Assembly (NCBI GenBank): GCA_030672365.1
Contig: DAOVGM010000046.1
Coordinates: 1 to 52,457, forward strand
Length of the DNA stretch: 52,457 bases
Reading direction: 5' to 3'
DNA from: Methanomassiliicoccales archaeon
GTDB lineage: Archaea > Thermoplasmatota > Thermoplasmata > SG8-5 > JAGLSY01
The notes under the pieces are model-generated. The model saw only the letters and a list, made by a program, of their open reading frames with translations, was not told the origin of the DNA and did not search any database. How positions within the stretch are numbered: the stretch's first letter is position 1; every line of letters starts with the position of its first letter. Position numbers and translations under genes: made by a program. This document shows, in pieces, positions 2,751 through 41,171 of the stretch.

Positions 2751-5700
2751 ATGAACTGGCTCTGCAACAGCCGGAACTTATCGGTCGGGAGGATGAATTG
2801 GATAAACTCAGCCGATCTCTGGATAATGCAATCGAGGGCAATGGTTCGACGATTTTCATAGGCGGAGAAGCAGGCATTGGAAAAACCAGGCTCGTTTGCG
2901 AATTAATGAAGGATGCAGAATCCAAAGGTGTCCATATGATACAGGGTTGGTGCCTTGCGGAGAGCCTCGAGCCACTTATGCCCATCAAGACCGCCCTGAG
3001 GGAAGCCAGGATGTTTCACCTGGTATCTGGGGATCCGCCCCCGAAGGTTGTCTCGGCTTATCTCATTGACGATGCAGGCATGCTTATGAACAAGGCCGAG
3101 AGGGAAGAATCCGGTTTGGACCCGGACATTTTCGCCTCAATGTTGCAGGCGGTCGGGAACTTCATAAAGGACTCGCTCTCAATGATGGATAGCGACTCCG
3201 GTGCTCACCTTCACTCTCTGGGGTACGGAGAATACACCATCCTGCTCCAGTCCCATGGCACGTTATCCCTGGTCACCGTTATCAAGGGCACGAACAGCGA
3301 GTTCCTGATTGACGACATGAAGCAGGTTCTTGCCGAAACAGGAAGCAAATTCGATGACTGGTCTGGGGACATTTCCAAAACCGAGGAGCTCCAGCCCAAA
3401 ATCTCATGGTTCGTCGACTCAGGAAAATATGACGGCAGATTCCTTGTGGACGATGCAAAGATCAAGCAGGAAAATTTGTTTGATAATATCCTGTTGGGCA
3501 TACAGAGGGCATCCCTGGAAAAGCCAGTGCTTCTGTTTCTGGATGATTTACAGTGGTCTGACCCCAGTTCCCTGAACCTTATCCATTACCTTGCCAGGAA
3601 CAGCAGGAATAACAGGGTTCTTATTCTAGGAACCTACAGGCCGGAGGATATCTTAGAAGCCCATGACGGGAAGACTCATCAGTTGGAAATCGCCTTGCAG
3701 GGCATGAGCAGAGAGGACCTTCTCCATAAAATGGAACTGAAAAGGCTGGGACCAGAGGAAACTAAGAGGATAGTCGAATCAATGCTCGGCCAGACCGCCT
3801 TTGAGAAAGATTTCTTCGATAAGATATTCAAGGACACTGACGGCTCTCCCTTCTTCATCCTAGAAGTCATCAAGATGCTGGCGGAGGACAAGGCCATCGA
3901 GCAGGATGAAGATGCCTGGCGATTGAAGAAAGAGCTGGATGAGATCGATGTTCCATCCAAGGTCTACGACGTCGTAAAACGACGACTGGACAGATTGATG
4001 AAGGAACAAAGAAGAATGCTTGACTGTGCCAGTGTAGTTGGTCAAGAGTTTCAATCCGAGATTGTCGGCCGGGTCATGGGAGTGAACAAGTTACAACTTC
4101 TGGAGAATCTTAGCGAAATCGAGAAAGTCCACCGTCTGATTCACTATCTGAAAGACAAATATAAATTTGACCATGCAAAGATTCAGGAAGTGTTATACAA
4201 CAGTATAGGGGAGGAACTTAGAAAAGAGTATCACAAGATTATTGCTGACACGATAGTGGAACTACACGAGGACAATCCGGATGACGTTGTAAATGAACTG
4301 GCCTATCATTATTGTGAGGCCAGAGATGAGAGAGCTGGAGGATATCTTGTTATGGCAGGCGACAAAGCAAAGGAAGAGTTTGCGAATGAGGAATCAATCA
4401 AGTTATACGCAAATGCTGTCGTCCTGATAAAGAATGAGGAAAGAGTGGAAGTCCTAGAGAAGCTTGGAGATGTCCAGTCGCTCATCGGTGATTTTGATAA
4501 GGCTATCGAGAACTTTGAAAAAGCAAAAGGAACAGCCGAGGACAAAGAGACCAAGGCCAGGATGCTGAGGAAGAGCAGCGATGTCTATGAGAGGATGGGC
4601 GAGTATGACAAATCCTTAGAGTTGTTGGCCAGGGCGAAGAAATTAATAGAAGAAGGGATGGCAGAGTATGGCAAGATATGTTTTGGCGAAGGATATGTCC
4701 ACTGGAAAAAGGGAGATTACGACAATGGCCTGCCCCTCTTCAGGACAGCCCTGAAGATATTCGAGGAGACGGGAGACGACCAGAAGGATATTGGCAATGC
4801 GCTCCGAGCGGTCGGCAACATTCACACAAGCAAAGGAGGTTACGACGAAGGTGTCCAATACTATGAAAAGAGTCTGGCCGTGATGGAGAAGATAGGGGAT
4901 CAATATGGTATCGCGACCGCACTCAACAACATCGGCATCGTGCATAAACACAAGGGCGAGTTTGACAGGGCGCTAGAGTTCCAGGAGCGCAGTCTGGAGA
5001 TTCTGGAGAAGATCGGGGATAAGCAGGGCATAGCGATGTCGCTGTACAACATCGGTGTCGCGCACTATGAGAAGGGCGAGCCGGTGAGTGTGCTGGAGTT
5101 CTATGGGCGCAGTCTGGAGATTCTGGAGAAGATCGGGGACAAGCAGGGCATAGCGATGTCGCTGTACAACATCGGTGTCGTCTACCATGACAGGGGCGAG
5201 CTGGAGAAGGCGCTGGAGTTCCACGAGCGTGGCCTGGAGATTCTGGAGAAGATCGGGGACAAGTGGGGCATAATGATCTCGCTCAGCAACAGCGCCGCCG
5301 TCTACCATGACAGGGGCGAGCTGGAGAAGGCGCTGGAGTTCTACGAGCGCGGCCTAGAGATATGTTTAGAGATTGGTGAAAAGCGTGTGTCTATCCACCA
5401 CCACTGCGGGCTGGCAGAGGTCAAACTTGAAATGGGCGACGTGCAAATTGCGTTCGAACACGCGGAAAAGGCGATCAGGGTTGCCATCGATATCGGCGCA
5501 AAATCCGAAGAAGGCATGAGCCATCGGGTCCTGGGGATGGTGTATCGGGAGAAGAAAGACAGGGACAACGCAATTGAAGAGTTCGAGAAGGCCAGGATTA
5601 TTCTTGATGAGTTTGGCGAGAAAATTGAGCTGGCCAAGGTGTTCTATGAGCATGGTCTATTGTTCAAGGTCAAAGGCGAACCCGCCAAAGCCCGTGAGTA

Positions 5701-5791
5701 TCTCAAAAAAGCTCACTCCGAGTTCGAGCGCATGGGCATGAAGCTGAGGGAAGAGAAGTGCAGGAAGGCGCTGGGGGAGTTGGAGGGATGA
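2747..5791 (+). CDS. STAND-like P-loop NTPase (AAA_16 type) with roadblock/longin-like insert and C-terminal TPR array, paralog B
   Basis: The N-terminus is ELIGREDELDKL...GGEAGIGKTRL (Walker A). Walker B-like LLFLDDLQWSDPSS comes about 220 aa later. The insert reads DPDIFASMLQAVGNFIKDSL...GYGEYTILLQSHGTLSLVTVIKG. A long TPR array follows. GGAGG lies upstream and there are ATGA overlaps at both ends. Confidence 0.85.
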   Translation: MNELALQQPELIGREDELDKLSRSLDNAIEGNGSTIFIGGEAGIGKTRLVCELMKDAESKGVHMIQGWCLAESLEPLMPIKTALREARMFHLVSGDPPPKVVSAYLIDDAGMLMNKAEREESGLDPDIFASMLQAVGNFIKDSLSMMDSDSGAHLHSLGYGEYTILLQSHGTLSLVTVIKGTNSEFLIDDMKQVLAETGSKFDDWSGDISKTEELQPKISWFVDSGKYDGRFLVDDAKIKQENLFDNILLGIQRASLEKPVLLFLDDLQWSDPSSLNLIHYLARNSRNNRVLILGTYRPEDILEAHDGKTHQLEIALQGMSREDLLHKMELKRLGPEETKRIVESMLGQTAFEKDFFDKIFKDTDGSPFFILEVIKMLAEDKAIEQDEDAWRLKKELDEIDVPSKVYDVVKRRLDRLMKEQRRMLDCASVVGQEFQSEIVGRVMGVNKLQLLENLSEIEKVHRLIHYLKDKYKFDHAKIQEVLYNSIGEELRKEYHKIIADTIVELHEDNPDDVVNELAYHYCEARDERAGGYLVMAGDKAKEEFANEESIKLYANAVVLIKNEERVEVLEKLGDVQSLIGDFDKAIENFEKAKGTAEDKETKARMLRKSSDVYERMGEYDKSLELLARAKKLIEEGMAEYGKICFGEGYVHWKKGDYDNGLPLFRTALKIFEETGDDQKDIGNALRAVGNIHTSKGGYDEGVQYYEKSLAVMEKIGDQYGIATALNNIGIVHKHKGEFDRALEFQERSLEILEKIGDKQGIAMSLYNIGVAHYEKGEPVSVLEFYGRSLEILEKIGDKQGIAMSLYNIGVVYHDRGELEKALEFHERGLEILEKIGDKWGIMISLSNSAAVYHDRGELEKALEFYERGLEICLEIGEKRVSIHHHCGLAEVKLEMGDVQIAFEHAEKAIRVAIDIGAKSEEGMSHRVLGMVYREKKDRDNAIEEFEKARIILDEFGEKIELAKVFYEHGLLFKVKGEPAKAREYLKKAHSEFERMGMKLREEKCRKALGELEG
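4975..5360 (+). repeat. Intragenic tandem repeat, 120-bp unit (about 3 copies); each unit encodes one 40-aa TPR of paralog B
   Basis: Rows 4981-5040, 5101-5160 and 5221-5280 are near-identical (gcagtctggagattctggagaagatcgggga[tc]aagcagggcatagcgatgtc). The peptide LEILEKIGDKQGIAMSLYNIGV is repeated verbatim. Confidence 0.9.
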
Positions 5792-8583
5792 CTGAACTGG
5801 CCCTTCAACAAACGGAACTCATTGGCAGGGATGAAGAGCTGAATAAACTCAAGTCATGTTTAGATAATGCCATCAATGGTGAGGGGTCCACGATATTCAT
5901 CTCCGGAGAGGCAGGCATTGGAAAAACTAGGCTGGTCGATGCCTTTCGGGAATTTGCCGCGACACAGAATGTCACGGTCTTGACGGGCGCTGGGTCTGCA
6001 GATATCAGCCAGCCGTTTTTGATATTCTCCAAGGCATTTGGGGAAGTTATGGAGAAACCGCTGTTCGAGGAGCAGGAATACAAGGGATTCGCCAAGCTCT
6101 TCGCGGTGAACATGGCAGGGATGCTGGTTGCCGAAACCTCGGCCGAGGAAGAGGACTTGGATGCGGACATCTTTGCCGGTATGCTGTCGGCTGTCCAGGA
6201 CTTTGTGCGCGACAGTTTCGACCAGGCAGGAACGCAAAAAGCCAGCTTAGGGCGCCTCGAGTACGGGAACATGAAGATTCTTATCGAGCACGGTGCGCAA
6301 ATCTTTCTCACGGCAGTCTTTGCCGGCGAGGAGCACCCGGATATGAAACGTCTTCTGAGACGAACGCTGGAAGACATCGAGGAAAAGCACGCCCCAGTCC
6401 TCGAATCCTGGTCCGGGCAGATGAAGGACACTGCCCCCATACAGCAAGAAATCGCTAAGCTGGCCGATGTGCAGTTTCTTGTTCGAAGAAATCTCGAGGG
6501 CATAAGCATCGAAACCGAGAGGCTCAGGATTGCGGATGAAATCCTTGAAGTTTTGAAACGTTTATCAGCCGAAAAACCCATGATAATCTTTCTGGAGGAC
6601 CTTCACTGGACCGACGAGTCCTCACTGTTCGTCATCAATTACCTGGCAAGGAACATACGGAATTACTCCATCCTCCTGGCGGGGACCTTAAGACCCAGAG
6701 AATCAGCTTCACTTCAGAAAGCCATCGATAACATGAATAACGAGGAGATTCTGGATGAGATGGCCCTTGAACAGTTGGACTTCAAGAACACGATTAGGGT
6801 GATTGACAAAACATTTCCTCACAATGATTTTCCCGTTACACTGGCGGAACGGCTGTACGAACAATCAAAAGGCAATCCTCTCTTTGTCATAGAAATGCTC
6901 AAGGGGATGCATGACGATGGCAGTATTGCAAAACAGGATGGGGCATACACATTGGTATCAGAGTCATATCAGATTCCAGCTACCGTAGAGGAGGTGGTCA
7001 ACCGCAGATTGGAGACTCTCGACCCGGACACCATGGCCATGGTGGAATATGCTTCCTGCATCGGACAGAGGTTCGACATGTCCCTTGCGGCATCCAATCG
7101 ATTGATGAAGGAACCGTATGCATCACTAGAAAAATTGCTGGCATCGGGCATTCTTTTGAAAAAGAACGGGACCATAGAGTTCAGCCATGCGGTGTTCCAA
7201 AGTGTGATATACAATGGCATAGGGGAGAGATGGAAAAACGGGCATCACAGGAACCTTGGCGAGTACCTTGAAATGACCTACGTAGATAGACTGGACGAGG
7301 TCATTTACGATCTGGCAAGGCATTTCTCCAGAACAAAGGAATATAAGAAATGTACCGATTATTGCACAAAGGCAGGGGAGAAGGCTGAGGGCTCCTATGC
7401 AATGGAGCAGGCATTAGAATTCTACAGAGAGGCCCTGGATGCGCTTTCCAGACTGGACCAAACCTATGCCCACGATATAACTTTGGATATACTGGAGAGA
7501 ATCGGGGACATCCAGGCCATCATGGGGGACTTCGATGGGGCCACCGGGGAATTCCGAAAGGCAGTAGATATCGCTGATGACAAAGAAACCAAGGCCAGGC
7601 TGCTGAGGAAGGTCGGCAGTATGCATGAAAGGAAAGGAGAATACGACAAGTCCCTGGAGATTCTGGCAGAGGCCAAGGGATTGGTGGATGCAGATAAAGC
7701 CGAGTACGGCAGGATACTCCGTATTGAAGGGGGAATATACTGGCGAAAGGGAGAATACGACAAAGCCATGCCCCTCTTTTTAAAGTCTATAGAGATAGCT
7801 GAAAAAATCGGCGCAGACAAGAAGGATATCGGTAACGCACTCAGAACGGTTGGTATCATCCACCATAGCAGGGAAGAATATACTCTCGCCATGCAGTATT
7901 ACCAAAAAAGTCTGGCCATTATGGAGGATATCGGAGAATTGAATGGCATCGCGGCGGTGCTGAACAACATTGGTGTCGTGCACTATGAGAAGGGCGAGCT
8001 GGACAGGGCACTGGAGTTCCACGGGCGCAGCTTGGAGATAAAGGAAAAAATAGGGAACAAACAAGGAATTGCGACGTCGCTGAACAACATTGGTATCGTG
8101 CACGCAGATATGGGCAATCAGGATAGAGCAGTGGAGCACTATGAAAAATGTTTGGCCATAAGCCTTGAGATTGGGGATAAAAGTGGGGCAATTTATGTTT
8201 ATTACGGTCTGGCAAAAGTCAAACTTGGGAAGGGCGATGCCCGGGCAGCCTTTGAAAATGGGGAAAAGGCAAGAAGGATTGCTGTGAAGATTGGTGCCAA
8301 GATGGAAGAAGGCATGAGTCGCCGGATATTGGGCATGGCACATCGGGAGATGAAGGATTGGGACAGGGCGACCGAGGAATTCGGAAAGGCCCAAAAAATC
8401 TTGCAAGAGGTCGGCGAAAAGAATGAACTGGTAATATTATCCTACGAGCTCGCCCTCCTCTTCAAAGCCAAAGGCGAACCCGCCAAAGCAAAGCCACACA
8501 TTGAAAAGGCCCTGGCCATGTTCGAGGAAATGGGCATGAAGCTGTGGATTGAGAAGTGTGAGAAGGCGCTGGCTGAACTGTAA
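5788..8583 (+). CDS. STAND-like P-loop NTPase (AAA_16 type) with roadblock/longin-like insert and C-terminal TPR array, paralog C
   Basis: I prefer start ATG 5788 (MTELALQQTELIGRDEEL) over track start 5758. It parallels the paralog B N-terminus, makes an ATGA overlap with the upstream stop and has GGAGGG immediately upstream. Motifs: SGEAGIGKTRL, IIFLEDLHWTDESS, and a TPR array homologous to paralog B. Confidence 0.85.
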   Translation: MTELALQQTELIGRDEELNKLKSCLDNAINGEGSTIFISGEAGIGKTRLVDAFREFAATQNVTVLTGAGSADISQPFLIFSKAFGEVMEKPLFEEQEYKGFAKLFAVNMAGMLVAETSAEEEDLDADIFAGMLSAVQDFVRDSFDQAGTQKASLGRLEYGNMKILIEHGAQIFLTAVFAGEEHPDMKRLLRRTLEDIEEKHAPVLESWSGQMKDTAPIQQEIAKLADVQFLVRRNLEGISIETERLRIADEILEVLKRLSAEKPMIIFLEDLHWTDESSLFVINYLARNIRNYSILLAGTLRPRESASLQKAIDNMNNEEILDEMALEQLDFKNTIRVIDKTFPHNDFPVTLAERLYEQSKGNPLFVIEMLKGMHDDGSIAKQDGAYTLVSESYQIPATVEEVVNRRLETLDPDTMAMVEYASCIGQRFDMSLAASNRLMKEPYASLEKLLASGILLKKNGTIEFSHAVFQSVIYNGIGERWKNGHHRNLGEYLEMTYVDRLDEVIYDLARHFSRTKEYKKCTDYCTKAGEKAEGSYAMEQALEFYREALDALSRLDQTYAHDITLDILERIGDIQAIMGDFDGATGEFRKAVDIADDKETKARLLRKVGSMHERKGEYDKSLEILAEAKGLVDADKAEYGRILRIEGGIYWRKGEYDKAMPLFLKSIEIAEKIGADKKDIGNALRTVGIIHHSREEYTLAMQYYQKSLAIMEDIGELNGIAAVLNNIGVVHYEKGELDRALEFHGRSLEIKEKIGNKQGIATSLNNIGIVHADMGNQDRAVEHYEKCLAISLEIGDKSGAIYVYYGLAKVKLGKGDARAAFENGEKARRIAVKIGAKMEEGMSRRILGMAHREMKDWDRATEEFGKAQKILQEVGEKNELVILSYELALLFKAKGEPAKAKPHIEKALAMFEEMGMKLWIEKCEKALAEL

Positions 8584-9666: not shown

Positions 9667-10362
9667 TCAGACTATCTCGAATCCGTCCTTATCGAATATC
9701 AGCGGGTAATAACCGCGCTTGTGATTGGTCTGGCGCATCTTGACGATGCTGAGGAAAAGGTTGACACTCTTTCCGCTCCTGTGCATATCCAGGTGCATGA
9801 TCCCGTCTGCCAGAAAATCCTCTCCGTACTTGCAGAACTCGTCGGAGCCTTGGGTCATCTCGGTGATGACAAACGTGGTCACATCCAGGTCTTTGAGCCA
9901 TTCGAAGAGGAAAAATAATTCCTCTCTTGGATTGGTGAACTTCGCCATGACCTCCAGAGCTGCCAGGGAATCTATGACCAGCAGGTTCATGTTCATGTTA
10001 TTATTGAGGTTATCGAGGTACATCCTGAGGGTTTCCATCCAGGTTTGGTTGCTCAGCTGGGTGAGTTTTTTCCTTATCATCCCCATGTCCAGAATGCTGA
10101 GCTCCTTTCCCATAAGGGACTGGATATCGCTCATTCCAAGACTTTCCATGTTCGCGGTCAGGCTTTTTCGACCCTGCTCCAAGGTCACAAAGACCCCGTT
10201 CAGGTCCTTCTGGCAGGCATTTTGGTACAATATATTGAAAGCGAAGGAAGATTTCATCGTGCCGGGTTTTCCGGCCACCATAACCATGCTTCCCGCTGGA
10301 ATACCGCCCTGCATCTCCTTGTCCAGACCCTTTACGTAGGTCTTGATCCTCTTGACTTTCAT
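9667..10362 (-). CDS. KaiC-like / RecA-superfamily single-domain ATPase (COG0467-like), deviant Walker A
   Basis: GLDKEMQGGIPAGSMVMVAGKPGTMKSS carries Walker A with Met where the GK[ST] Gly is expected. LLVIDSLAAL is the Walker B. I prefer ATG 10362 (MKVKRIKTYVKGLD, parallel to the paralog at 26010) over track GTG 10395. Confidence 0.8.
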   Translation of the reverse strand: MKVKRIKTYVKGLDKEMQGGIPAGSMVMVAGKPGTMKSSFAFNILYQNACQKDLNGVFVTLEQGRKSLTANMESLGMSDIQSLMGKELSILDMGMIRKKLTQLSNQTWMETLRMYLDNLNNNMNMNLLVIDSLAALEVMAKFTNPREELFFLFEWLKDLDVTTFVITEMTQGSDEFCKYGEDFLADGIMHLDMHRSGKSVNLFLSIVKMRQTNHKRGYYPLIFDKDGFEIV

Positions 10363-10514
10363 AACACTCACACAAGGTTCATTCCCTGAGTTCACTAAGA
10401 CAATAAAAGACTATCGGTATGCGAGATATTCTTCTATTTCCTTCTCCATTACCCATCCTGCCCCCGGGTCTTAATATCATTTTCGATGGAAATCCCGGAA
10501 GTGCCCAACAAAAC

Positions 10515-11674: not shown

Positions 11675-12208
11675 TTATCCAAAGACCGTCTCCATCACGC
11701 GTTTGTGCACGGCCAGGTCTCCCTCGGAATACAAAACAAAACGAATCAACTTCACGCTCTGAAGCTCCGGAATGGCAGCTTGAATCGTCGAGAAGGCCAC
11801 CTGTGTGGCCTCCTCCTTCGGATAGCCGAACGCACCTGTGGAAATAGAGGGAAACGCGATCGATGAAAGGCCGTTCGAGTCAGCAAGCCGCAAAGCATTC
11901 CGATAGCAGTCGGCCAGCAGTTCTCCCTCCGGTTTATCTCGGCCGTAAATGGGACCGAGGCAATGGATGACGTGCGGGTTCGGCAGGTTGTGGCCCGAAG
12001 TGATGACAGCTTCCCCCGGTTCAATGGGGGCCAGCGGCGCACACTCCTTCTCCAGGCCGGGCCCCGCGGCGCGGTGAATCGCACCGGCGACCCCGCCGCC
12101 CATCCTGAGCATGGCATTGGCTGCATTGACAATCGCATCGATGCCCACCTGGTCCGCGATGTTGCCCTGAATGCAATCGACAACAATACCCGATAACTCG
12201 ACCTCCAT
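11675..12208 (-). CDS. Macrodomain protein (ADP-ribose binding / O-acetyl-ADP-ribose deacetylase-like, YmdB/Af1521 type)
   Basis: GNIADQVGIDAIVNAANAMLRMGGGVAGAIHRAAG and IAFPSISTGAFGYP are canonical macrodomain motifs. Confidence 0.85.
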   Translation of the reverse strand: MEVELSGIVVDCIQGNIADQVGIDAIVNAANAMLRMGGGVAGAIHRAAGPGLEKECAPLAPIEPGEAVITSGHNLPNPHVIHCLGPIYGRDKPEGELLADCYRNALRLADSNGLSSIAFPSISTGAFGYPKEEATQVAFSTIQAAIPELQSVKLIRFVLYSEGDLAVHKRVMETVFG

Positions 12209-16243: not shown

Positions 16244-16395
16244 GTGGGTGGGTTGTTACCCACCACCATGCCAGTATTTGTTTTTTTGCCCGCCCCAACC
16301 ATTGGGTGGGCCCCCCCACCCTTCCGCGTCTGCGCTGGGTGCACCCGCCCCCCTGCACCCTGCTCGACGCGGCCTGGCCTGCTCGGGACGCTTGA
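16244..16395 (+). repeat. C-rich structured intergenic repeat, copy 1 (core two-stem hairpin 16324-16372)
   Basis: The core is CCGCGTC-TGCGCT-GGGTGCA-CCCGCCCCCC-TGCACCC-TGCTC-GACGCGG. The upstream module is CCCGCCCCAACCATTGGGTGGGCCCCCCCACCC. The element is homologous to copies at 47352, 49518 and 52313. Confidence 0.85.
16247..16287 (+). terminator. Hairpin plus T-tract downstream of 14968..16221
   Basis: The hairpin is GGTGGGT-TGTT-ACCCACC (16247-16264), followed by tatttgttttttt ending at 16287. Confidence 0.4.
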
Positions 16396-22277: not shown

Positions 22278-23969
22278 TTGAACTATCTTATTTACGAGGA
22301 GAGGACAGACGAGACCTTCAAATTATTCGACGAAGTAGTCAAATCTGGAGTGCCTGGCCTCTGCATTACGACGGTATATCCCAAGAAGCTGAAAAAAATG
22401 TACGGCCTGGACGAAAAGGCGAAGATTTACTGGCTGTCGGATTCCAGCAACGAGCCAGACACGTTAGTGCCCACTAGACTCGACTTCGAAATCACGAGGG
22501 TCATAAACAAGTTCATTAAGGACAATGAAGAATCGATTCTCCTCCTCGACGGATTCGCTTATCTCACGCTCGAGAACGAGTATGACAAGGTTCGGAAATT
22601 TGTCAAGCGAACGAATGACCTGGCTTCCGTGAATAATGGCACAATTATTGTCGTGGTGAACCCGCAGTCATTCAACAAGGAAACCGTTACGACGCTCTCG
22701 CGTGATTTCGACAAGGTTGGTGATGTCGGCGACTTTTCAGGGAAGCCGGCGGCGCAACCGCAACCCGCGGCGCCGCAGCCAGCTACCCCGCAACCGATGG
22801 CAGCCCCCCAGACACCCACCTCGCCGCATGACCTCAGAATCGACGCAGGCGTCGACGAACTGGTGGGCCCCCCTGTAGTGGAAGAAGAACCCGAGGATGA
22901 CCTGCCGGACCTTGAAATCGAGGATATATATCTCATTCATCGAAGCACCGGCACCCTTATTCAAAGAAGGACATGGCGTGACCAGGACCTAATAGACCCC
23001 GACCTCGTGGGCGGTATGTTCCAGGCTATCCTGGACTTCATCAACAACTCGTTCGCCGCTGGCGAGGTATCAGACTTCAGCAGAATCGACGTCAAAGGAT
23101 ATATCATTCTCATTGCGGACGGCGATTTCGTATCTGTGGCTCTTGTTTTCTCCGGCAAGGTCGAAGAGTACATCAACAAGGCCATGAAGGATATCAAAAA
23201 GGCACTCAAGTCCAACATCGGCGATGTCGAGGTCAGCTACAAGAACATCCTCGCGGAATACGACGGGGACGTGAGCAAACTTCGCGGCACCAGAAAGAAC
23301 CTGGACTCCCTGTCAATGGACATCAACGCCGCCCTTGAAGAACATCTCAAGGGCAGAATTAGGAAGAGAAAATTATCACAGATGGAAAAGAAACAGGTCA
23401 GCGATAAGTTCTCCCAGGCCGTGAGTATGGGCCGTCAGAAGAAATTCGATGAAGCCATTAAACTTTATGACTCAGCTTTGGGCATAGACCCGACCCACAC
23501 CGAATCCCTGTTCAACAAAGGTGTTATTTTACAGATACTGGGCAGAATCGACAACGCACTGGAATGCTATGATACGGTCATTCAAATCAACCCAAATGAT
23601 AGTGAGGTCTGGGGAAACCGCGGAATAGCCCTCAGGTCAATCGGCCAGGTCGACGAGGCAATCGATTCATACGACCAGGGCCTTCAGATAAATCCCGGCG
23701 ATTCCAGTCTGTGGAGCAACAGGGGCATCGCGCTCAGAAGCGTTGGGAGGATCAAGGAGGCGATAGAGTCTTATGACAACGCACTTGAAATCAATCCGCG
23801 GGACGCCGGCGTTTGGAGCAATAAAGGGGTAGTACTAGGAAGCATGGGTCTTATGAAAGAGGCAATCGAGTGCTACGACAAGGCGCTTTCCATCGACCCG
23901 GGCAGACGACTAGCTTCGAAGAACAGAGAAATTGCCATCAAGGAGATCGAAAGGAGGGGACTGACATAG
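22278..23969 (+). CDS. DUF835 domain - roadblock/longin-like module - TPR protein
   Basis: The start is TTG; there is no in-frame ATG before residue 40. The DUF835 pattern is YLIYEE..GLCITTVYPKKL..IYWLS..ILLLDGFAYL..IIVVVNP. A Pro/Ala/Gln linker follows. The roadblock-like module is IYLIHRSTGTLI..DPDLVGGMFQAILDFINNSF..GYIILIADGDFVSVALVFSG. Then come 34-aa TPRs (INPNDSEVWGNRGIAL etc.). Confidence 0.8.
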   Translation: MNYLIYEERTDETFKLFDEVVKSGVPGLCITTVYPKKLKKMYGLDEKAKIYWLSDSSNEPDTLVPTRLDFEITRVINKFIKDNEESILLLDGFAYLTLENEYDKVRKFVKRTNDLASVNNGTIIVVVNPQSFNKETVTTLSRDFDKVGDVGDFSGKPAAQPQPAAPQPATPQPMAAPQTPTSPHDLRIDAGVDELVGPPVVEEEPEDDLPDLEIEDIYLIHRSTGTLIQRRTWRDQDLIDPDLVGGMFQAILDFINNSFAAGEVSDFSRIDVKGYIILIADGDFVSVALVFSGKVEEYINKAMKDIKKALKSNIGDVEVSYKNILAEYDGDVSKLRGTRKNLDSLSMDINAALEEHLKGRIRKRKLSQMEKKQVSDKFSQAVSMGRQKKFDEAIKLYDSALGIDPTHTESLFNKGVILQILGRIDNALECYDTVIQINPNDSEVWGNRGIALRSIGQVDEAIDSYDQGLQINPGDSSLWSNRGIALRSVGRIKEAIESYDNALEINPRDAGVWSNKGVVLGSMGLMKEAIECYDKALSIDPGRRLASKNREIAIKEIERRGLT

Positions 23970-23979
23970 GTGATGTCAC

Positions 23980-25302
23980 ATGATTGAGAAGGGGAAGAAT
24001 CATTTGATTTTTGAGTCCAGCACGAATTACACGATGGAAATGTTTACCGAATTCGACAAACACGGGACACCGTGCATCATGGTCACGACAAATCTGCCGA
24101 AGAAGATAAAAAAGGAATTCAATCTCAAACAGGTTGAATTTATCTGGCTCACAGAAGCGGACGACCCGAAGGCCCTGAAAGGACCCATAACCGATGAGCT
24201 ACGGGATTTTGTCAGGAACAACAAAGGCTCGGTCATTTTTATCGATGAAGTCGAGTACTTGATTCTCGAGAACGGCTATGAAGTCGTCGAGGAGTTTTTG
24301 GTGGGATTGGGGAATATAACTCATGAGTTCGGAGGAACACTCATAGTTCCGCTCGACCCCAATTCGATTACCGAAGAGATTTCAAAAGCCCTATCCAAGA
24401 AGTTTGACCAGATAAAGGATGTGAGGAACATTATGCTAACAGGGAACAAGGTAGAATGCCCGGAGTGCGGGGCGATGTGGCATACCAACATCCCAGTCTG
24501 CGACATCTGCGGTTATGAATTCAAGGCCGACAGGGTAAAACCGTCGCTGGCTTCGGAGGAGAAGAAGATCCCGCGTATCGAGGCGAAGATATCCGGTAAA
24601 CTTCGCTCCGGGATGCCCGTGCCCGAACCAATGCCAGAACCAATACCAGAATCAATGCCTGAACCGGTACGAGAACCGGAGCCGGAACGCGAACCCGTGG
24701 ACAAACCCGCAGCGTACGACCATGCCGTCAGACCGCAGGACGACTCCTGGTTTAATAGAGGCGTCGCCCTTGAAAAAATGGGCAAGAGCGAGCAGGCGAT
24801 CGAGTGCTTCGACAAGGCGCTGGATGAGAACCCGAATGACTCCTGGGCCTGGTTTAACAAGGGCGTGTCATTGCACCGTCTTGGTTTGCTGGGCGAGGCC
24901 CTTTTCTGTTATGATAAAGCTCTGACCTACAACCCGAACGACTCGGACCTGATGTCCAACAAGGGCATTCTTCTCAGAACGCTGGGCAAGACCGACGAGG
25001 CACTGGAATGCTACGAACGCGCCCTCGAGCTGAGCCCGCACGACCCCGGTATCTGGTCAAATCTGGGAGTCACATATCGTGTTCTGGGCATGGTCGACAA
25101 GGCTTTGGAGGCTTACAATAAAGCCCTGGAGATCGACAGCCAGGACGTAGGTGTCTGGCTGAATAAAGCGGCGGCACTGCAGTCCGAGGGAAGATTCGAT
25201 GAAGCCATCCAGTGCTATGAATCCATACTCAAGATCAATCCATATCATCCGGTCGCATTGCGAAACAAGGAATTCGCAATGGGGCGGTCGCTTCGCAGCT
25301 AA
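23980..25302 (+). CDS. DUF835 domain - zinc ribbon - TPR protein
   Basis: The DUF835 pattern is HLIFES..PCIMVTTNLPKK..FIWLTE..VIFIDEVEYL..LIVPLDP. CPECG..CDICG is a zinc ribbon. The linker is Pro/Glu-rich (PVPEPMPEPIPESMPEPVREPEPEREP). Five to six 34-aa TPRs follow. Confidence 0.8.
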   Translation: MIEKGKNHLIFESSTNYTMEMFTEFDKHGTPCIMVTTNLPKKIKKEFNLKQVEFIWLTEADDPKALKGPITDELRDFVRNNKGSVIFIDEVEYLILENGYEVVEEFLVGLGNITHEFGGTLIVPLDPNSITEEISKALSKKFDQIKDVRNIMLTGNKVECPECGAMWHTNIPVCDICGYEFKADRVKPSLASEEKKIPRIEAKISGKLRSGMPVPEPMPEPIPESMPEPVREPEPEREPVDKPAAYDHAVRPQDDSWFNRGVALEKMGKSEQAIECFDKALDENPNDSWAWFNKGVSLHRLGLLGEALFCYDKALTYNPNDSDLMSNKGILLRTLGKTDEALECYERALELSPHDPGIWSNLGVTYRVLGMVDKALEAYNKALEIDSQDVGVWLNKAAALQSEGRFDEAIQCYESILKINPYHPVALRNKEFAMGRSLRS

Positions 25303-25917: not shown

Positions 25918-26009
25918 AACCGGCGGATTGGGGATTCAAATAAAAGGTTTTCCCCCCCATCTTTTATACTTAAACTTCCATTATGATACTGAATAAATAT
26001 CTGGAGGGC

Positions 26010-26720
26010 ATGGGAATGGTCGAGAAAATTAAGACTTATATCGAGGGTTTTGACGAGATTTTAGGCGGCGGTATACCTACTGGCCACGTAGTATTGGTAT
26101 GCGGCACCCCGGGCACAATGAAGACATCGCTCACGTTCAGCATGATGTACGAGAACGCCCGTCGGGAGGGTCGTCGAGGCCTCTACATTTCCCTCGAGGA
26201 AGGGTATGAAGGTCTCAAGGGGGCAATGGAAGACCTCGGGATGACTGGCATCGACGAGTTGGAAGTATACATGGTGGACGTCGGAAAGATCCGCATAACC
26301 CACAAGGAAGAGGAGCACGGCCGCAACTGGCTCCAGATTATCGAGAAGTACATCAGGAAGAGGGTTCAGGAGGACGAGTTCGACATTCTGGTAATCGATT
26401 CGCTGGCTGCCCTTTATTCACTGACCGAATTGAAGCATCCCAGGGTCGAGTTGTTCCATTTTGTCCGATTTCTGAAAGAGCTGAAATCTACTGTAGTTCT
26501 CATTTCGGAGATAAGCCATGGCAGTGTCCAGATGGTCGCCAATGACGAGGATTTTCTTGTCGATGGAATTCTGTATCTCAAGCTGCACGAAGTCGGGGAG
26601 GCCGATATACAATTGAGGATATCATGCGTCAAGATGAGGCGGACCCAACACGACAGGGGCTGGCTCAGGCTGATACACAGGGTCGACAAGTTTGTGGCTC
26701 ATCCAGTCATCTCAGAATAA
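26010..26720 (+). CDS. KaiC-like / RecA-superfamily single-domain ATPase, paralog 2, deviant Walker A
   Basis: GGAGG lies 4 nt before ATG 26010. GFDEILGGGIPTGHVVLVCGTPGTMKTS carries the deviant Walker A. ILVIDSLAAL is the Walker B. It is collinear with 9667..10362. Confidence 0.8.
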   Translation: MGMVEKIKTYIEGFDEILGGGIPTGHVVLVCGTPGTMKTSLTFSMMYENARREGRRGLYISLEEGYEGLKGAMEDLGMTGIDELEVYMVDVGKIRITHKEEEHGRNWLQIIEKYIRKRVQEDEFDILVIDSLAALYSLTELKHPRVELFHFVRFLKELKSTVVLISEISHGSVQMVANDEDFLVDGILYLKLHEVGEADIQLRISCVKMRRTQHDRGWLRLIHRVDKFVAHPVISE

Positions 26721-26805
26721 TATGTCCGAAAGGAATATATATTAGATAAGGATAGTATCGAAGTGCTTGGGATGCACCCAGCATATACTTAGATGGTTGT
26801 TGTAA

Positions 26806-27477
26806 ATGAAACAGATGAACATTACCGTCAGGGACGTATGGAAATCTTACGATGACAGACGTCAGGTTTTGCGAGGCATAAATCTGGAGATTGAACCGAA
26901 CGAGGTAATTCTCATCAAGGGACGGTCCGGAAGCGGTAAGAGCACGCTTCTGAACCTTTTGGGATGCATCGATAAGCCGTCACGCGGTGAAATATTCCTC
27001 AACGGATACAACACGAATGAACTCTCCGACAAGGAGCTGGCCAACATCCGGCTGCATAAAATCGGCATAGTTTTTCAAACCCACAATCTGATAAAAGACC
27101 TCACCGTTTTCGAGAACGTACTGCTGCCGATGAAGATCGCGAAATGGCACGACGGCGAATGGAAGGTCAGCGAGTTGTTGAAGACCTTTGACCTCAAAGA
27201 ATACGGTGACAAATATCCCGATGAAATAAGCGGCGGTGAAAGGCAGAGGGTGGCTGTTGCCAGGGCACTAGCCAACAGTCCGACGGTGCTTCTAGCCGAT
27301 GAGCCCACAGCATCACTCGACATTGATAATTGTGCGGTTGTTATGGAAGCATTCAAGAAAGCGAATAAAGAGTTTGGAGCCACGGTCGTTATCGCTTCAC
27401 ATGACCCTGCCATCGAAGACTACGTTGCTAAAAAATATTATCTGAATCGGGGAGTTTTGACGGAGGGAACAAACTGA
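26806..27477 (+). CDS. ABC transporter ATP-binding protein (MacB/LolD/FtsE-like)
   Basis: GRSGSGKSTLLN is the Walker A, ISGGERQRVAVARAL the ABC signature, and LLADEPTASLD the Walker B. Confidence 0.9.
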   Translation: MKQMNITVRDVWKSYDDRRQVLRGINLEIEPNEVILIKGRSGSGKSTLLNLLGCIDKPSRGEIFLNGYNTNELSDKELANIRLHKIGIVFQTHNLIKDLTVFENVLLPMKIAKWHDGEWKVSELLKTFDLKEYGDKYPDEISGGERQRVAVARALANSPTVLLADEPTASLDIDNCAVVMEAFKKANKEFGATVVIASHDPAIEDYVAKKYYLNRGVLTEGTN

Positions 27478-27560
27478 GTTCCAATAATCCCAAAAGTCTG
27501 TTAGAGGGCAAGGAATATCCGACAGATTTAATCATCGTATTATTATGGTCTATTGCAACA

Positions 27561-28418
27561 GTGATTTTCGTTTTTGTACTTCCAGACGGCAATATTGTGA
27601 GAATTATATTCGGCATACCTATGCTTTTGTTCATACCTGGCTATGCCCTCGTATCGGTATTATGGCCCGAGAAACGTACAAATTTAAACGAGGACATCGA
27701 CGAAAACCTAGAACGGTTTGCCCTAAGTTTTGGTTTGAGTATAGCAATAGTCTCAATAATTGGTCTGGCTCTTAATTTTACATCTGCCGGCATAAATTTG
27801 ATGACCACGGTCTTCGCAAATTTCGGCATAATCTTTCTCCTGTCATTATTCGCATTTTACAGAAGGCAGCAATTGCCGGTCGAAAGGAGATATAATATCG
27901 ACCTCACCTTTAAAACGGCCAGGATGCCGGAAGATAAAACGGAAAGAGTTTTTATTGTGGCCATTACCGTGGTTTTAATTTTATCGGGAATTGTATTGGC
28001 TTACGTTCTTGTTACGCCAGGAGTCGAGGACAAATACACGGTGATGTACATTCTGGACCACAACGGTACGGCAGTTGATTATGTCTCCGACATTACAATA
28101 AACGAGACAGCTGAAGTGATAGTCGGTTTCGAATCCCATCAATTTGAAACAACATTGTATTCGTTCTATACTGGAATAATCAGCCTCGACGGTATTGATA
28201 ATTATGTATATTGGAACAGCTGGAATCAAACCGACGATTTGACGAATGTTTCTGGTGGTGGTCAGGCAATCCAGCTGGAACACGGAGAATCTTATGAGAG
28301 AAATTTCGAGTTCAACATAAGAACGTCAGGGACGTATCAAATTATCTGGCAACTCCACACCGAAGGAACGGATAATTATTACGAGGTTCGCATAAGGGTG
28401 AACATAAATGCTGCTTAA
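27561..28418 (+). CDS. DUF1616 family membrane protein (minimal coordinates; true start probably upstream)
   Basis: IFGIPMLLFIPGYALVSVLWPEK and LERFALSFGLSIAIVSIIGLALNF are DUF1616-like. The frame is open from 27432 and encodes a further TM helix (PTDLIIVLLWSIATV) before the first canonical start, GTG 27561. Confidence 0.7.
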   Translation: MIFVFVLPDGNIVRIIFGIPMLLFIPGYALVSVLWPEKRTNLNEDIDENLERFALSFGLSIAIVSIIGLALNFTSAGINLMTTVFANFGIIFLLSLFAFYRRQQLPVERRYNIDLTFKTARMPEDKTERVFIVAITVVLILSGIVLAYVLVTPGVEDKYTVMYILDHNGTAVDYVSDITINETAEVIVGFESHQFETTLYSFYTGIISLDGIDNYVYWNSWNQTDDLTNVSGGGQAIQLEHGESYERNFEFNIRTSGTYQIIWQLHTEGTDNYYEVRIRVNINAA

Positions 28419-29709
28419 CGATGCCTTTGCCGTTCGTAAAACACACAAGTTTTTGATGAAGAGCCAATACTGGCCTCGGGAGGAACTTGAAAAATATCAA
28501 AATACGAAACTCAGAGTACTCGTACAAAATTCCTACGACAATGTACCATATTATCACGACATTTTTAAAAAACTAAACCTGAAACCAGATAATATTAAAA
28601 CAAAGGCGGATTTGCATAAACTTCCCATTCTCACAAAAGATGACTTACGCCAGCATCTGGACAAAATGCTGGCTTCCAACCTGAAAAACAAGGCGATGCC
28701 GTCCCAAACCGGGGGTTCGACAGGCGAACCTTTGAAATTCTACGTTCAGAGGGAGATGTGGACATGGGCTAACGGAGCCAGGTACAGAGGATGGAACTGG
28801 GCGGGTTACGAGTTCAGAGACAGGATGGTGGACTTATGGGGCGCCAGTTTCGAAATTGAACAACTCGAAAAAATGAGCACAAGTTTTCGTCACAAGCTCC
28901 TTCGCAGATTGACACTCAATACCTTCAGAATGTCCGATGAAGATATGGGCCAGTATGCCCGACAAATCATTGATTTCAAGCCGAAAATAATTCGTTCATT
29001 TTCGGGAGCGATGTACGTTTTCGCGAAATTCGTCAGTGAGCACGACATTAAAGGCATCGAACCCGAGTCCATTATCACCACGGCGGAGAACCTCTTCGAC
29101 TTCCAGCGCAAGAAAATCGAAGATACGTTCGGTTGCAGTGTTTATGATGGTTACGGCAGCCGAGAGACCTCGCTGATAGCCCACGAATGCGAGCATCACA
29201 GGGGGTATCACATTTCCGATGAGAACTCCATCGTCGAGTTTCTGAAAAACGATAAGCCAGTAACTTTTGGGGAAAGCGGTGAGATTATCATCACCGACCT
29301 GCACAATCTGGTGATGCCGTGGCTCAGGTATTCCATCGGTGACATGGGAACTCCCAAAGACGAAAAATGCAGCTGTGGTCGAGCCCTTTCGATGATGACC
29401 TCGATTGACGGTCGCGTTCACGATTTCATAGTCACACCGTCGGGTCAACGGTTGCCCGGTGAATTCTTCCCGCACCTTTTCAAAGACGTCAACGGCATCA
29501 GGGAATATCGCATCGTGCAGAAAAAAATCGAGGAGCTGGAAGTTGAAATTGTCAGAACCTCTGATTTCACCGATTCAGATTTCCAATACCTGCTGACGCA
29601 TTTCCATGAGTACCTGGGCGATGACATTGATATCGAGGTCAAATTTCCGAATTCAATCGACTGGCCTGAATCTGGAAAGCGCAGGTTCACGATATCGGAG
29701 GTGGCCTGA
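28408..29709 (+). CDS. Adenylate-forming ligase, PaaK / CapK / F390-synthetase family
   Basis: QTGGSTGEPLKFY is the AMP-binding motif. The length and the C-terminal RFTISE-type tail are typical of capsule CapK-like proteins. Confidence 0.8.
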   Translation: MLLNDAFAVRKTHKFLMKSQYWPREELEKYQNTKLRVLVQNSYDNVPYYHDIFKKLNLKPDNIKTKADLHKLPILTKDDLRQHLDKMLASNLKNKAMPSQTGGSTGEPLKFYVQREMWTWANGARYRGWNWAGYEFRDRMVDLWGASFEIEQLEKMSTSFRHKLLRRLTLNTFRMSDEDMGQYARQIIDFKPKIIRSFSGAMYVFAKFVSEHDIKGIEPESIITTAENLFDFQRKKIEDTFGCSVYDGYGSRETSLIAHECEHHRGYHISDENSIVEFLKNDKPVTFGESGEIIITDLHNLVMPWLRYSIGDMGTPKDEKCSCGRALSMMTSIDGRVHDFIVTPSGQRLPGEFFPHLFKDVNGIREYRIVQKKIEELEVEIVRTSDFTDSDFQYLLTHFHEYLGDDIDIEVKFPNSIDWPESGKRRFTISEVA

Positions 29710-30893
29710 TGCGGATAATGATAGTCGGCAACGTGTATTCGATTCACGTCAGAAAATGGGCAGAATATTTCACAGCCAGACACGAAGTTTATCTGGCCTA
29801 TCTCCCTAAGAATTCAATCGATGAAGTGAAAAAGTTATTCGAGAACGACAAGATCAATCTCGTGCCCCTAGGAAGCCCGACGATAACCAACGTCAAACGA
29901 ATACCCAGAAAGGTGTCGATGAGTGCCTTCGGCGGCAAGCATTATATGACACTGGGTCTCAAAGAATTAAAGGTCGCAATCGCGGAAATAAAGCCAGATT
30001 TGATTCACGCCCATTATCTGCCGGATTATGGCTGGCTGGCCTCTCAAACAGGTTTCAGACCGCTGTTTCTCTCGGCCTGGGGATTCACACTGGCCTACAA
30101 GGGCGGAGGTGAGGATAAGAAATACACCAAGCAAATGTTTGCCTCGGCAGATACGGTCTTTGCAGGAGATGAATCGGCAAAAGCCCGGCTTGTCGAATAC
30201 GGTTGCGATCCCGAGAAGATATTCATTCAGCCCTGGGGAGTTGATACAGCTAGATTCTCGCCCGATGTTAAAGTGCCCGAACTAAAAATACACCTTTTCG
30301 GCAACCAAAACTATCGTGTCGTGACACTAGTCAGGCATCTGGTCGACATCTGTGACATTTCCACTCTGGTCGAAGCAATTCCTTTAATATCAAGGGATAT
30401 CACGGATGCCAGATTCCTGATTGTCGGGGACGGTCCCGAAAAGGCGAACCTTGAAAAATTGTCGAAACGCCTAGACGTGGCAGATAAAATCGTTTTTACC
30501 GGAAATGTGCCCAATGATGAACTCCATAAATACCTGGCAGCCTCCGACCTGTATGTTGATACACCGCATCCTACAAAAGCGGGAGGAGGCATCGGGGTCG
30601 CTCTGATGGAGGCCATGAGTTCGGGGCTTCCGTGCCTTGTGGCCGAAAGACCGGGCGCCGAATATGGGGTTCGTACGGGACTCAACGGCGAAATCTTCGT
30701 GGGCGGCGATTCCGACGACCTGGCCAGGAAAGCGATCGAAATTTTGAAAGACAATCGGAAAATGGAGCTGTACGGAAAAAACAGCAGGGAATTGGCCCTT
30801 GAAATCGGCGACTTCGCGAAAAATATGAGGGATATTCTTCGTTTGTACGAGAAATATCTGAACACAACGGAAAAGTTATTTACAGAACAGTGA
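29709..30893 (+). CDS. Glycosyltransferase, GT-B fold (GT4-like)
   Basis: The N-terminus is MRIMIVGNVYS. The C-terminal region GGGIGVALMEAMSSGLPCLVAE is present. The ATG overlaps the upstream stop by 1 nt (TGATG). Confidence 0.8.
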   Translation: MRIMIVGNVYSIHVRKWAEYFTARHEVYLAYLPKNSIDEVKKLFENDKINLVPLGSPTITNVKRIPRKVSMSAFGGKHYMTLGLKELKVAIAEIKPDLIHAHYLPDYGWLASQTGFRPLFLSAWGFTLAYKGGGEDKKYTKQMFASADTVFAGDESAKARLVEYGCDPEKIFIQPWGVDTARFSPDVKVPELKIHLFGNQNYRVVTLVRHLVDICDISTLVEAIPLISRDITDARFLIVGDGPEKANLEKLSKRLDVADKIVFTGNVPNDELHKYLAASDLYVDTPHPTKAGGGIGVALMEAMSSGLPCLVAERPGAEYGVRTGLNGEIFVGGDSDDLARKAIEILKDNRKMELYGKNSRELALEIGDFAKNMRDILRLYEKYLNTTEKLFTEQ

Positions 30894-30906
30894 AATAGGG
30901 GGGTTA

Positions 30907-32777: not shown

Positions 32778-32781
32778 ATAA

Positions 32782-34703: not shown

Positions 34704-34712
34704 GGTATACTA

Positions 34713-35564: not shown

Positions 35565-35579
35565 TATTGATCTGCGTGA

Positions 35580-36146: not shown

Positions 36147-36157
36147 TCGGTGATATT

Positions 36158-36456
36158 ATGACAAAAGTGGCTTTGATTACAGGTGCAAACGGTGGAATCG
36201 GAAGCGCCACGGCATTCGCATTGGAAAAAAAGCTCTCGACATAATCTTTTCAGATTTTTTTGACGAATCAGAAATCACCAATGACAATCTAAAAATAATA
36301 TTCGTCAAGCAGAACAAAGACAATCATCGTCTTGAAAAAGCGACTATTTTTGATATTTCCTCAAAGAAATATACTAAAAAAAGGACAGATATCGAAATAA
36401 AATTAATGAAATTTCTTATAAGCACCAAAGCAAGATTTTACCCATTATCTGGCTAA
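36158..36456 (+). pseudogene. Truncated, frameshifted short-chain dehydrogenase (SDR) remnant
   Basis: MTKVALITGANGGIGSATAFALEKK is an SDR Rossmann N-terminus. It stops at 36242-36244 just after an A7 run (36225-36231). Moving to the frame beginning at 36229 continues as ALDIIFSDFFDESE... to TAA 36454-36456. Even when joined, the product is only about 100 aa. Confidence 0.55.
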
Positions 36457-36480
36457 TTTTTCAAGGCCAAACATAAGGTT

Positions 36481-41152: not shown

Positions 41153-41171
41153 AATCGTTTCTGGCGGATAT

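Follow-up and report, generated by a model that had tools for sequence, protein, structure and literature searches.

A dispersed intergenic repeat with a covarying irregular hairpin in Methanomassiliicoccales-like archaea

Dispersed structured repeats are well studied in bacteria, where they include repetitive extragenic palindromic (REP) sequences, bacterial interspersed mosaic elements (BIME) and REP doublets forming hairpins (REPIN), but to our knowledge they have barely been described in archaea, and we know of none in Thermoplasmata or Methanomassiliicoccales. Here, we analyze contig DAOVGM010000046.1 from a Methanomassiliicoccales archaeon in its entirety (52,457 nt, hereafter the window), which carries copies of an element of about 80 nt consisting of two C-rich boxes, A and B, followed by an irregular hairpin. 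All coordinates of window copies refer to the + strand; loci outside the window are denoted by L numbers. In kind, the element is a variant of a class that prokaryotes are known to have, the dispersed structured repeats, and the family it belongs to is real, lineage-restricted and undescribed in the databases and literature searched.

The bacterial REP, BIME and REPIN elements are short, GC-rich, imperfect palindromes that recur many times per genome and are confined to intergenic positions, both behind genes and between cistrons; compensatory changes maintain the pairing of their stems, and their presence varies patchily among relatives, and the archaeal element is like them in each of these points. 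It is unlike them in its hosts and in lacking any sequence similarity. The bases 5' of its outer stem and of its A box are unconserved, with no GTAG-type tetranucleotide; its copies stand singly or in direct tandem (L003, L010, L008 and window copy 3) and never form inverted pairs; an extra C-tract module of ∼32 nt precedes the hairpin; and its loops and mismatches are invariant whereas its stems are hypervariable. No RAYT (Y1 transposase) gene was found in the window or beside the copies examined.

A search of the literature by topic and by motif strings returned no description of the element, the sole analogue being the recurrent G-quadruplex (G4) repeats of Methanomicrobiaceae, which form a G4 in vitro in competition with a hairpin and have no assigned function (Chashchina et al. 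2021, PMC8044849). Like the present element, these repeats are archaeal, dispersed and restricted to intergenic positions; in both, the G-runs come in pairs one base apart around a central loop that varies, next to a segment able to form a hairpin. However, the Methanomicrobiaceae repeats belong to another taxon and have another sequence, their central loop measures 3 to 5 nt compared with 9 to 14 nt here, and the present element has a separate, covarying two-stem hairpin where the G-runs of the Methanomicrobiaceae repeats pair with an adjacent C-tract. Its orientation follows the genes, whereas the Methanomicrobiaceae repeats have no orientation bias (PMC8044849). Judged by features of the Methanomicrobiaceae type, 15/17 copies have 1-nt outer loops and no complementary tract follows.

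Family, architecture and window copies

A degenerate core pattern made of the constant letters only has three + strand matches in the window, all with 0 mismatches (16324-16372, 47424-47472 and 49605-49653), and 0 matches are expected from 100 dinucleotide-preserving shuffles of the window. When scanned over 185,579 prokaryotic genomes, one per species, the core pattern identified 10 loci, all within four metagenome-assembled genomes (MAGs) labelled Thermoplasmata, Methanobacteriota or Methanomassiliicoccales archaeon. A relaxed pattern retrieved one true copy from JGI metagenomes, with three other matches attributable to chance inside GC-rich genes, and viral contigs scanned for the pattern gave no match. 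A covariance model built from 14 copies detected 17 distinct full-length copies at 70 to 98 bits, plus several relics. These full copies are spread over at least five Thermoplasmata/Methanomassiliicoccales-like genomes. The density of copies, the window relic included, is 4 per 52 kb in the window and 1 per 19 kb or 1 per 15 kb elsewhere, or roughly 1 per 13 to 20 kb overall. The closest relative of the window's PanE protein is 54% identical, an identical copy in one sequencing run aside.

Rfam 15 gave 0 matches to the whole window at gathering score, and at E ≤ 10 the copy 1 region returned only noise (6-13 bits vs gathering scores of 36-70); the statement in the preliminary description of this sequence that the element was not recognized as a known RNA family thus holds at gathering and permissive thresholds alike. 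Inspection of both strands, together with Rfam, ruled out K-turns, H/ACA RNAs, bulge-helix-bulge motifs, archaeal SECIS elements and ribozymes: the invariant region has no tandem G·A beside the bulge, no fixed ACA and no 3-4-3 geometry, and the upstream genes are not selenoprotein genes. A coding element was likewise rejected, as open reading frames (ORFs) cross the C-rich stretch only through the rarity of stop codons, and the covariation and the variable spacer argue against it.

All copies share a common plan in which the A box (CCCRCCCCA) is followed by a free spacer of 9 to 13 nt, the B box (CCCCCCACCC), 5 to 8 nt that include the outer 5' arm, and the remainder of the hairpin, giving 75 to 86 nt (about 80) from the A box to the hairpin end. 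CCCRCCCC is conserved in 16/17 copies and the A-to-B distance is 22 nt in 11/15, while the sequence of the spacer varies. Without any structure supplied, RNAalifold returns both stems together with three invariant pairs (G-C, G-C, C-G) that lie inside the two internal loops of the preliminary description; the strings of those loops are constant, as had been noted, but the loops are not fully open. The resulting hairpin has ∼16 bp and is irregular, with an invariant bulged U, C·U and U·U mismatches, and a 10-nt loop (CCCNNCCCCC), the loop and mismatch columns being identical in 14 to 17 of the 17 copies. In one subclass (L008, L009, both L010 copies and L021), the inner stem is interrupted by an additional 2x2 loop of opposed pyrimidines. 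It had also been proposed that a spacer GGGTGGG can form mutually exclusive helices with the flanking C-rich boxes. Such a G-tract is present in copy 1 and in a half copy upstream of copy 3 (GGGTGGG) and in copy 2 (GGGTTGG), but 14/17 spacers have no G-run and the idea does not extend to the family.

Within the window, the quoted sequences proved exact at their coordinates, and of the four copies claimed three are intact and the fourth is a relic. The intact copies share one two-stem hairpin (fold z scores of -3.8 to -6.2 as RNA and -5.0 to -5.9 as DNA), and each stem difference among them is compensated on the partner strand. Copy 4 (52339-52420) scores 27.3 bits with the covariance model vs 79 to 89 for the other window copies, and its hairpin folds no better than shuffled sequence (z +0.3), although both C boxes are kept; the hairpin has decayed, so the window holds three intact copies and one relic. 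The parts of the window copies are as follows.

16281-16287 (+): T7 tract directly 5' of copy 1; T6 tracts likewise precede copies 3 and 4
16289-16297 (+): copy 1, A box CCCGCCCCA
16298-16310 (+): copy 1, 13-nt spacer with a GGGTGGG able to pair with the A or the B box
16311-16321 (+): copy 1, B box CCCCCCCACCC
16324-16372 (+): copy 1, irregular hairpin, outer stem CCGCGTC/GACGCGG, inner stem GGGTGCA/TGCACCC (66.8 bits, hairpin-only model); invariant UGCGCU/UGCUC region between the stems, C-rich 10-nt loop
16373-16391 (+): orphan 3' half of a second hairpin (CCTGGCC-TGCTC-GGGACGC), right behind copy 1
47390-47398 (+): copy 2, A box CCCACCCCA
47412-47421 (+): copy 2, B box CCCCCCGCCC
47424-47472 (+): copy 2, hairpin, outer stem CCGCTCC/GGAGCGG, inner stem GGCCATA/TATGGCC (73.9 bits, hairpin-only model)
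49519-49551 (+): half copy without a hairpin, 5' of copy 3, with A box, 13-nt GGGTGGG spacer and B-like box CCCCCCACTCC
49571-49602 (+): copy 3, A box (49571-49579), spacer and B box CCCCCCTCCC (49593-49602)
49605-49653 (+): copy 3, hairpin, outer stem as in copy 1, inner stem GGGCAGA/TCTGCCC
52314-52322 (+): solo A box 5' of copy 4
52339-52420 (+): copy 4, A box (52339-52347) and B box (52361-52370) intact, hairpin decayed

The covariance-model match to copy 4 spans 52332-52424, and the contig ends 33 nt beyond it.

Covariation and a sister family on the same core

Base pairing of the hairpin is clearly kept by selection. We tested 13 pairs in an alignment of the 17 copies against controls in which the 3' partners were shuffled (500 times) or slid by one to three columns. 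Standard pairs occupy 91.9% of cells vs 64.1% after shuffling, with 0/500 shuffles reaching the observed value, and the slid-partner controls pair in only 34 to 49% of cells. Both sides change in 10/13 pairs (62 cells), with a covariation score of 0.73 vs 0.18. The search pattern had fixed the GG/CC and C-G pairs, and these three are uninformative for that reason; the other 10 were unconstrained. A MAFFT alignment gave the same covariation picture. The earlier proposal that selection acts on pairing rather than on stem sequence is therefore borne out, both by the excess of paired cells and by the double changes. By type, the pairs (∼207 paired cells) comprise 205 Watson-Crick and 2 G·U pairs, beside about 4 to 7 A·C combinations. 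As a test of which strand folds, the 2 G·U vs ∼4 to 7 A·C favor neither strand, and the near-absence of G·U is a mild argument for pairing at the DNA level or for recent copying.

A model restricted to the hairpin recovers every copy and, in the RS_9_71 organism, three weaker matches that belong to a sister family; a further site lies at L006.

L002:6549-6625 (+): sister-family copy, hairpin-only model
L006:44-118 (+): sister-family copy, hairpin-only model
L001:6435-6511 (-): sister-family copy, hairpin-only model
L006:2985-3023 (-): further sister-family site

The sister family, of which there is no copy in the window, has the same invariant core (CTG[CT]GCTGG ... C[CA]TGCTCG) and an inner stem that also covaries (GGCTCACC/GGTGAGCC vs GGCCAGG/CCTGGC). 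In place of the C-rich loop, it has a conserved, A-rich apical loop of 37 to 39 nt, and a 5' TTTTTTTCTTTT tract, the exact complement of part of that A-rich loop, replaces the C boxes. Since the same core serves both families, the irregular helix appears to be a common and presumably recognized unit, and comparison of the sequences suggests that the 5' module and the apical loop may be exchangeable partners across the two families.

Genomic context, orientation and turnover

Neighboring genes were called by ORF and Pfam at 12 further loci in addition to the window; ∼13 loci have called neighbors. The copies are all intergenic, none lying within a gene, and the neighboring genes are functionally unrelated. 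In the window, the stop codons at 16221, 47321, 49501 and 52289 were verified and all four copies start 17 to 70 nt past the stop of a co-oriented gene. Copy 1 follows the gene for a 417-aa protein that has no Pfam match, copy 2 that for an MscS-type channel and copy 3 that for a PanE/ApbA ketopantoate reductase; copy 4 comes after a Na+/H+ exchanger gene, and a co-oriented CN-hydrolase gene starts (49690) 36 nt downstream of the copy 3 hairpin. The T7 and T6 tracts before the window copies may be the oligo-T terminators of the upstream genes or mark a favored context for insertion; in the former case, the copies behind them are located past the point where the transcript normally ends.

Neighbors are convergent at window copies 1 and 2, and head-to-tail at window copy 3, L002, L003, L007/L017 and L009/L024. 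Orientation follows transcription wherever it can be judged: the C-rich strand is the sense strand in 5/5 head-to-tail loci. Copy 1 matches the orientation of its upstream gene though most genes nearby face the opposite way, which argues against a simple replication-strand bias. Divergent neighbors flank the copies at L001 (TctA/DHH-family), L006 (Toprim/428-aa ORF), L008 (PPIase/CN hydrolase) and L010, and at L005 the element adjoins the start of a divergent amino-acid kinase gene. The L017 element is embedded in a hemA-hemB-hemL-hemC-[element]-cobA/hemD operon, 41 nt past hemC and ∼25 nt before cobA/hemD. Co-oriented neighbors lie downstream at ∼10/12 loci and upstream at ∼8/13. Because copies also lie between divergent genes and in the haem operon, the element is not specific to 3' ends. 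A T-run of at least four within 15 nt follows the hairpin in ∼6/17 copies. No conserved promoter was found upstream of the copies, nor any promoter-like word at a fixed distance.

The element turns over fast between relatives and is occasionally retained for long. Locus L016 has the gene order of the window (MscS, radical SAM, PanE, CN hydrolase, Na+/H+ exchanger; PanE 54% identical), and the element is absent from 3/3 syntenic sites there, with spacers of 88 and 25 nt vs 188 and 188 nt in the window. At L016:8868-8905, the convergent spacer between MscS and radical SAM is filled by another GC hairpin (GGGGTTGTcGCCC...GGGCaACAACCCC), and a flank motif beside the radical-SAM stop, GGCCTGGC, is common to L016 and the window (47494-47501). 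At an aldehyde dehydrogenase site, three assemblies from a single organism carry the element, which is absent from the remaining 54 nt after the gene in a relative 89% identical in that protein and absent too in a 74% relative. At L028:3150-3240, the last ∼35 nt of the aldehyde dehydrogenase gene are duplicated in tandem.

The junction behind hemC was compared in five lineages whose HemC proteins are 79 to 92% identical.

L017: element present
L021: element present
L020: element absent; unrelated spacer of 119 nt; HemC 88% identical to that of L021
L022: element absent; genes abut
L023: element absent; 20-nt spacer homologous to the right flank of L017

L017 and L021 (HemC 82% identical) have a ∼45-nt leader, the boxes and an outer stem (AACTC/GAGTT) in common, while their spacers have diverged throughout and their inner stems are of different classes, both still pairing. 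By this sequence comparison, the element at L017 and L021 is an orthologous copy retained with a remodelled stem. In L020, short ACAATCTA-type repeats fill the hemC-cobA spacer where relatives carry the element (L020:1250-1290). The same MAG, which is Methanomassiliicoccales-like, has a multihaem cytochrome gene adjoining haem (Ahb-type) biosynthesis genes (L020:4137-5573, -), and the presence of these genes hints that these archaea are perhaps not conventional methanogens.

Partial and rearranged copies are common to several loci. Direct tandem copies occur in L003 and L010. Orphan 3' half-hairpins lie directly behind full copies in the window (16373-16391) and at L004:158-192, L006:1790-1808 (-) and L003:1075-1093 (-); they consist of the loop and/or inner 3' arm, TGCTCG and the outer 3' arm, and their stem type is always unlike that of the adjacent full copy. 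The same orphan stem types recur across different genomes, and the window orphan, unlike copy 1 in stem type, has an outer 3' arm identical to that of the L004 full copy. At L008:876-942 (-), the boxes and outer arms are intact, but a clean deletion, of the kind that slippage across a hairpin would produce, has removed the inner stem-loop. An identical hairpin stands behind different spacers in L003 and L005. Contig breaks at or near an element are seen in the window, L004, L005, L006 and L015; several contigs, the window included, stop at an element or no more than ∼100 nt away from one.

Several other features of the window were recorded. GCCAGTAW has 21 window sites on both strands (e.g., 16270, 47336 and 52265) vs 1.4 expected from dinucleotide shuffles. 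We considered it as a signal near the copies and rejected this: the sites are genic and intergenic and are also found in related loci, and GCCAGTAT, with 15 occurrences, is matched in frequency by other leading 8-mers, among them CAGCCAGA and TTTTTCAA, so that a general oligomer bias, probably a composition or codon effect, is the likely cause. Three consecutive TPR-repeat genes (911, 1014 and 941 aa) occupy 15-8583, the second and third also encoding an AAA_16/STAND NTPase domain, and two adjacent DUF835-TPR genes lie at 22278-25302. KaiC-like ATPase genes are located at 9667-10395 (-) and 25983-26720 (+), and a Macro-domain gene at 11675-12208 (-). The segment from ∼26000 to 42000 has a GC content of 0.43 to 0.49 vs 0.53 to 0.56 elsewhere and contains glycosyltransferase, sugar epimerase/dehydratase, aminotransferase and flippase genes; on its predicted gene content it looks like a surface-glycan island. 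Inside this low-GC block is an AT-rich gap of 334 nt (36147-36480).

Proposed function and competing explanations

The best explanation that we can offer, at a probability of roughly 0.42, is that the element is a REP-like dispersed structured repeat that acts as a folded single strand, its C-rich sense RNA punctuating mRNA. We describe it as REP-like because it is intergenic, multi-copy, selected for pairing, and patchy yet sometimes retained, as are the bacterial REP elements; the likeness is one of function, and we do not file it as a member of the REP family. Among the options listed in the preliminary description, a protein-binding REP-like element is the best fit. The C-rich strand is always sense in head-to-tail loci, which makes the C-rich RNA the most probable folded species. 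In such a scheme, the C-rich sense transcript would fold and a putative protein would read the bulge, the mismatches and the C-rich loop, with the stems serving as scaffold only. The folded RNA would be carried on mRNAs in intercistronic, 5' or 3' positions and might punctuate them as a barrier to exonucleases or read-through, as a processing site, or as a protein-loading site, while copies would spread and decay via local duplication, insertion, module exchange and deletion. We infer all three of its components, namely a protein reader, RNA rather than single-stranded DNA as the active form, and an effect on the transcript.

Several points weigh against this explanation. The near-absence of G·U wobble is odd for a helix selected as RNA, and a DNA hairpin or recent copying fits equally well. 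The orientation statistic comprises five independent head-to-tail loci only. At the five loci without a co-oriented upstream gene, the element needs read-through or its own promoter, or is not transcribed. No partner protein was found. Finally, all of the genomes are fragmentary MAGs.

The main rival account is that the element is purely mobile or recombining DNA, the hairpin being the single-stranded DNA substrate of a transposase or recombinase and the bulge and mismatches its recognition marks; the covariation would then reflect the needs of mobilization rather than a service to the host, and the element would be essentially selfish. IS608 TnpA and IntI read their sites through extrahelical or mismatched bases in hairpins whose stems are otherwise free, and the conserved irregularities of the present hairpin recall those sites. 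More broadly, integron attC sites and the terminal hairpins of IS200/IS605 elements and palindrome-associated transposable elements (PATE) are also defined by structure plus extrahelical or mismatched bases, and are co-oriented and often located just after genes. The patchy presence among relatives 81 to 89% identical in the neighboring protein, the empty syntenic sites in L016, the tandem, 5'-truncated and internally deleted copies, the identical hairpin modules at different loci, and the breaking of assemblies at the element are all consistent with mobile DNA, as are the almost exclusively Watson-Crick pairs, with wobble preferring neither strand, and the location of 4/4 window copies on one strand, although for the last of these the orientation of copy 1 counts against a simple replication-strand bias.

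However, genes for a transposase, an integrase or a TnpB-like protein are missing both from the 52-kb window and from the surroundings of the copies examined: a scan of ∼45 window ORFs gave no transposase or integrase, and OrfB_IS605 and Y1_Tnp had no match among the proteins scanned. There is neither a conserved flanking tetranucleotide nor a target-site duplication, and each element has one hairpin rather than one at each end, with no inverted pairs; the single hairpin per unit would be a departure from the IS200/IS605-derived PATE, whose hairpins lie near both ends and are shared with a resident tnpA/tnpB element, and no TnpA/TnpB gene lies near the copies examined. The attC R''/R' core sites (RYYYAAC/GTTRRRY) are absent from all copies, and attC was rejected because the flanking genes are not cassettes, L016 having the same order without the element, and the window holds no integrase. 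Miniature inverted-repeat transposable elements (MITEs) are likewise small, non-coding, multi-copy, intergenic and polymorphic for presence, but here the palindrome lies inside the element and occupies only its 3' end. A MITE, as the preliminary description had allowed, does not agree with ends that are not complementary (A box CCCRCCCCA vs outer stem arm) and no target-site duplication; the longest direct word common to both flanks averages 4.9 nt vs 4.8 nt in mismatched flank pairs, the ends of the element being uncertain enough that a short duplication is possible. Nearly all copies keep a perfect hairpin despite their stem differences, which dead transposons would not, and the orthologous L017/L021 copies have been kept across ∼18% protein divergence. 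We regard mobile DNA as an unlikely explanation. Checks for what could have undone the preliminary description (random orientation, genic location, lack of covariation, identity with an Rfam family or a MITE) all favored a real, new element.

The complementary strand had been noted for its G-quadruplex potential, and this potential is a predicted feature of the family: on the G-rich (minus) strand, GGG-N-G6-N(9-14)-G4-Y-GGG is conserved in 15/17 copies, with G4Hunter maxima of 1.4 to 1.9, and the hairpin loop supplies two more G-runs. The element could be a DNA (or RNA) switch between the hairpin and a competing G-quadruplex or i-motif, and such a tetraplex might, for instance, halt RNA polymerase strand-specifically by forming on the template strand. 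Both the G-runs and their outer loops of one base are conserved, the central spacer is constrained in length and free in sequence, and the G-rich strand is always the template in head-to-tail loci. The 5' flank in the sister family is complementary, by Watson-Crick pairing, to part of the apical loop, which suggests that an interaction of flank and loop is a design feature. A tetraplex leaves the two-stem covariation, the invariant bulge and the mismatches unexplained; a central loop of 9 to 14 nt is long for a stable G4; C-rich RNA forms i-motifs poorly at neutral pH; and the L012 copy lacks the four-run motif and still keeps the hairpin. There is a precedent in the Methanomicrobiaceae repeats, which fold as G4 in vitro in competition with a hairpin (PMC8044849). 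We find a tetraplex switch improbable.

Could the copies instead be independently transcribed small RNA genes, with C-rich single-stranded regions that pair with G-rich targets such as ribosome-binding sites? Some copies stand alone between divergent promoters (L001, L006, L008 and L010), TATA-like AT-rich words occur within 25 nt 5' of the A box in ∼6 copies, oligo-T of at least four follows within 15 nt of the hairpin in the ∼6/17 copies mentioned above, and the C-rich loops parallel those through which some bacterial small RNAs bind Shine-Dalgarno sequences. Yet the AT-rich words are at variable distance and missing from most copies, the T-tracts of the window are upstream of the element and not downstream, the L017 copy is inside an operon between hemC and the next start codon, and tens to hundreds of near-equivalent genes with the same seed per genome would be unusual; small RNA genes are accordingly a very improbable answer. 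Least probable of all is an intrinsic terminator or 3' untranslated region element of the upstream gene, the leading idea of the preliminary description, for although 4/4 window copies lie 17 to 70 nt behind a co-oriented gene, two of them between convergent genes, and a T5-T6 follows the hairpin in L002, L008 and L009, five of the ∼13 loci have no co-oriented upstream gene, the L017 copy sits within an operon that must be read through, the oligo-T of the window precedes the element, archaeal termination requires oligo-T and not a hairpin, and neither conserved loops nor C boxes characterize terminators.

The sister family invites a further speculation, which we rate as doubtful. The irregular helix may be a portable recognition chassis for a putative archaeal protein, either a single-stranded DNA recombinase or an RNA-binding or RNA-processing factor, in which the 5' module of each family would contact the apical loop (by Watson-Crick pairing where these are A/T-rich, by a G4 or i-motif tetraplex where they are C-rich), so that the element would act as a two-state switch punctuating transcription units.

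If the element is in truth a selfish or neutral repeat, its practical value is limited to annotation and assembly; its significance would rise with a demonstrated partner protein or a hairpin/tetraplex switch. Hypervariable but complementary stems around invariant mismatches and loops, together with a sister family, point to a specific putative binding partner. The two covariance models and the defined boxes provide a handle for the annotation of MAGs, for explaining assembly breaks and for a search for the partner protein, and the family also allows quadruplex-prone repeats of archaea to be tested for action as DNA vs RNA.

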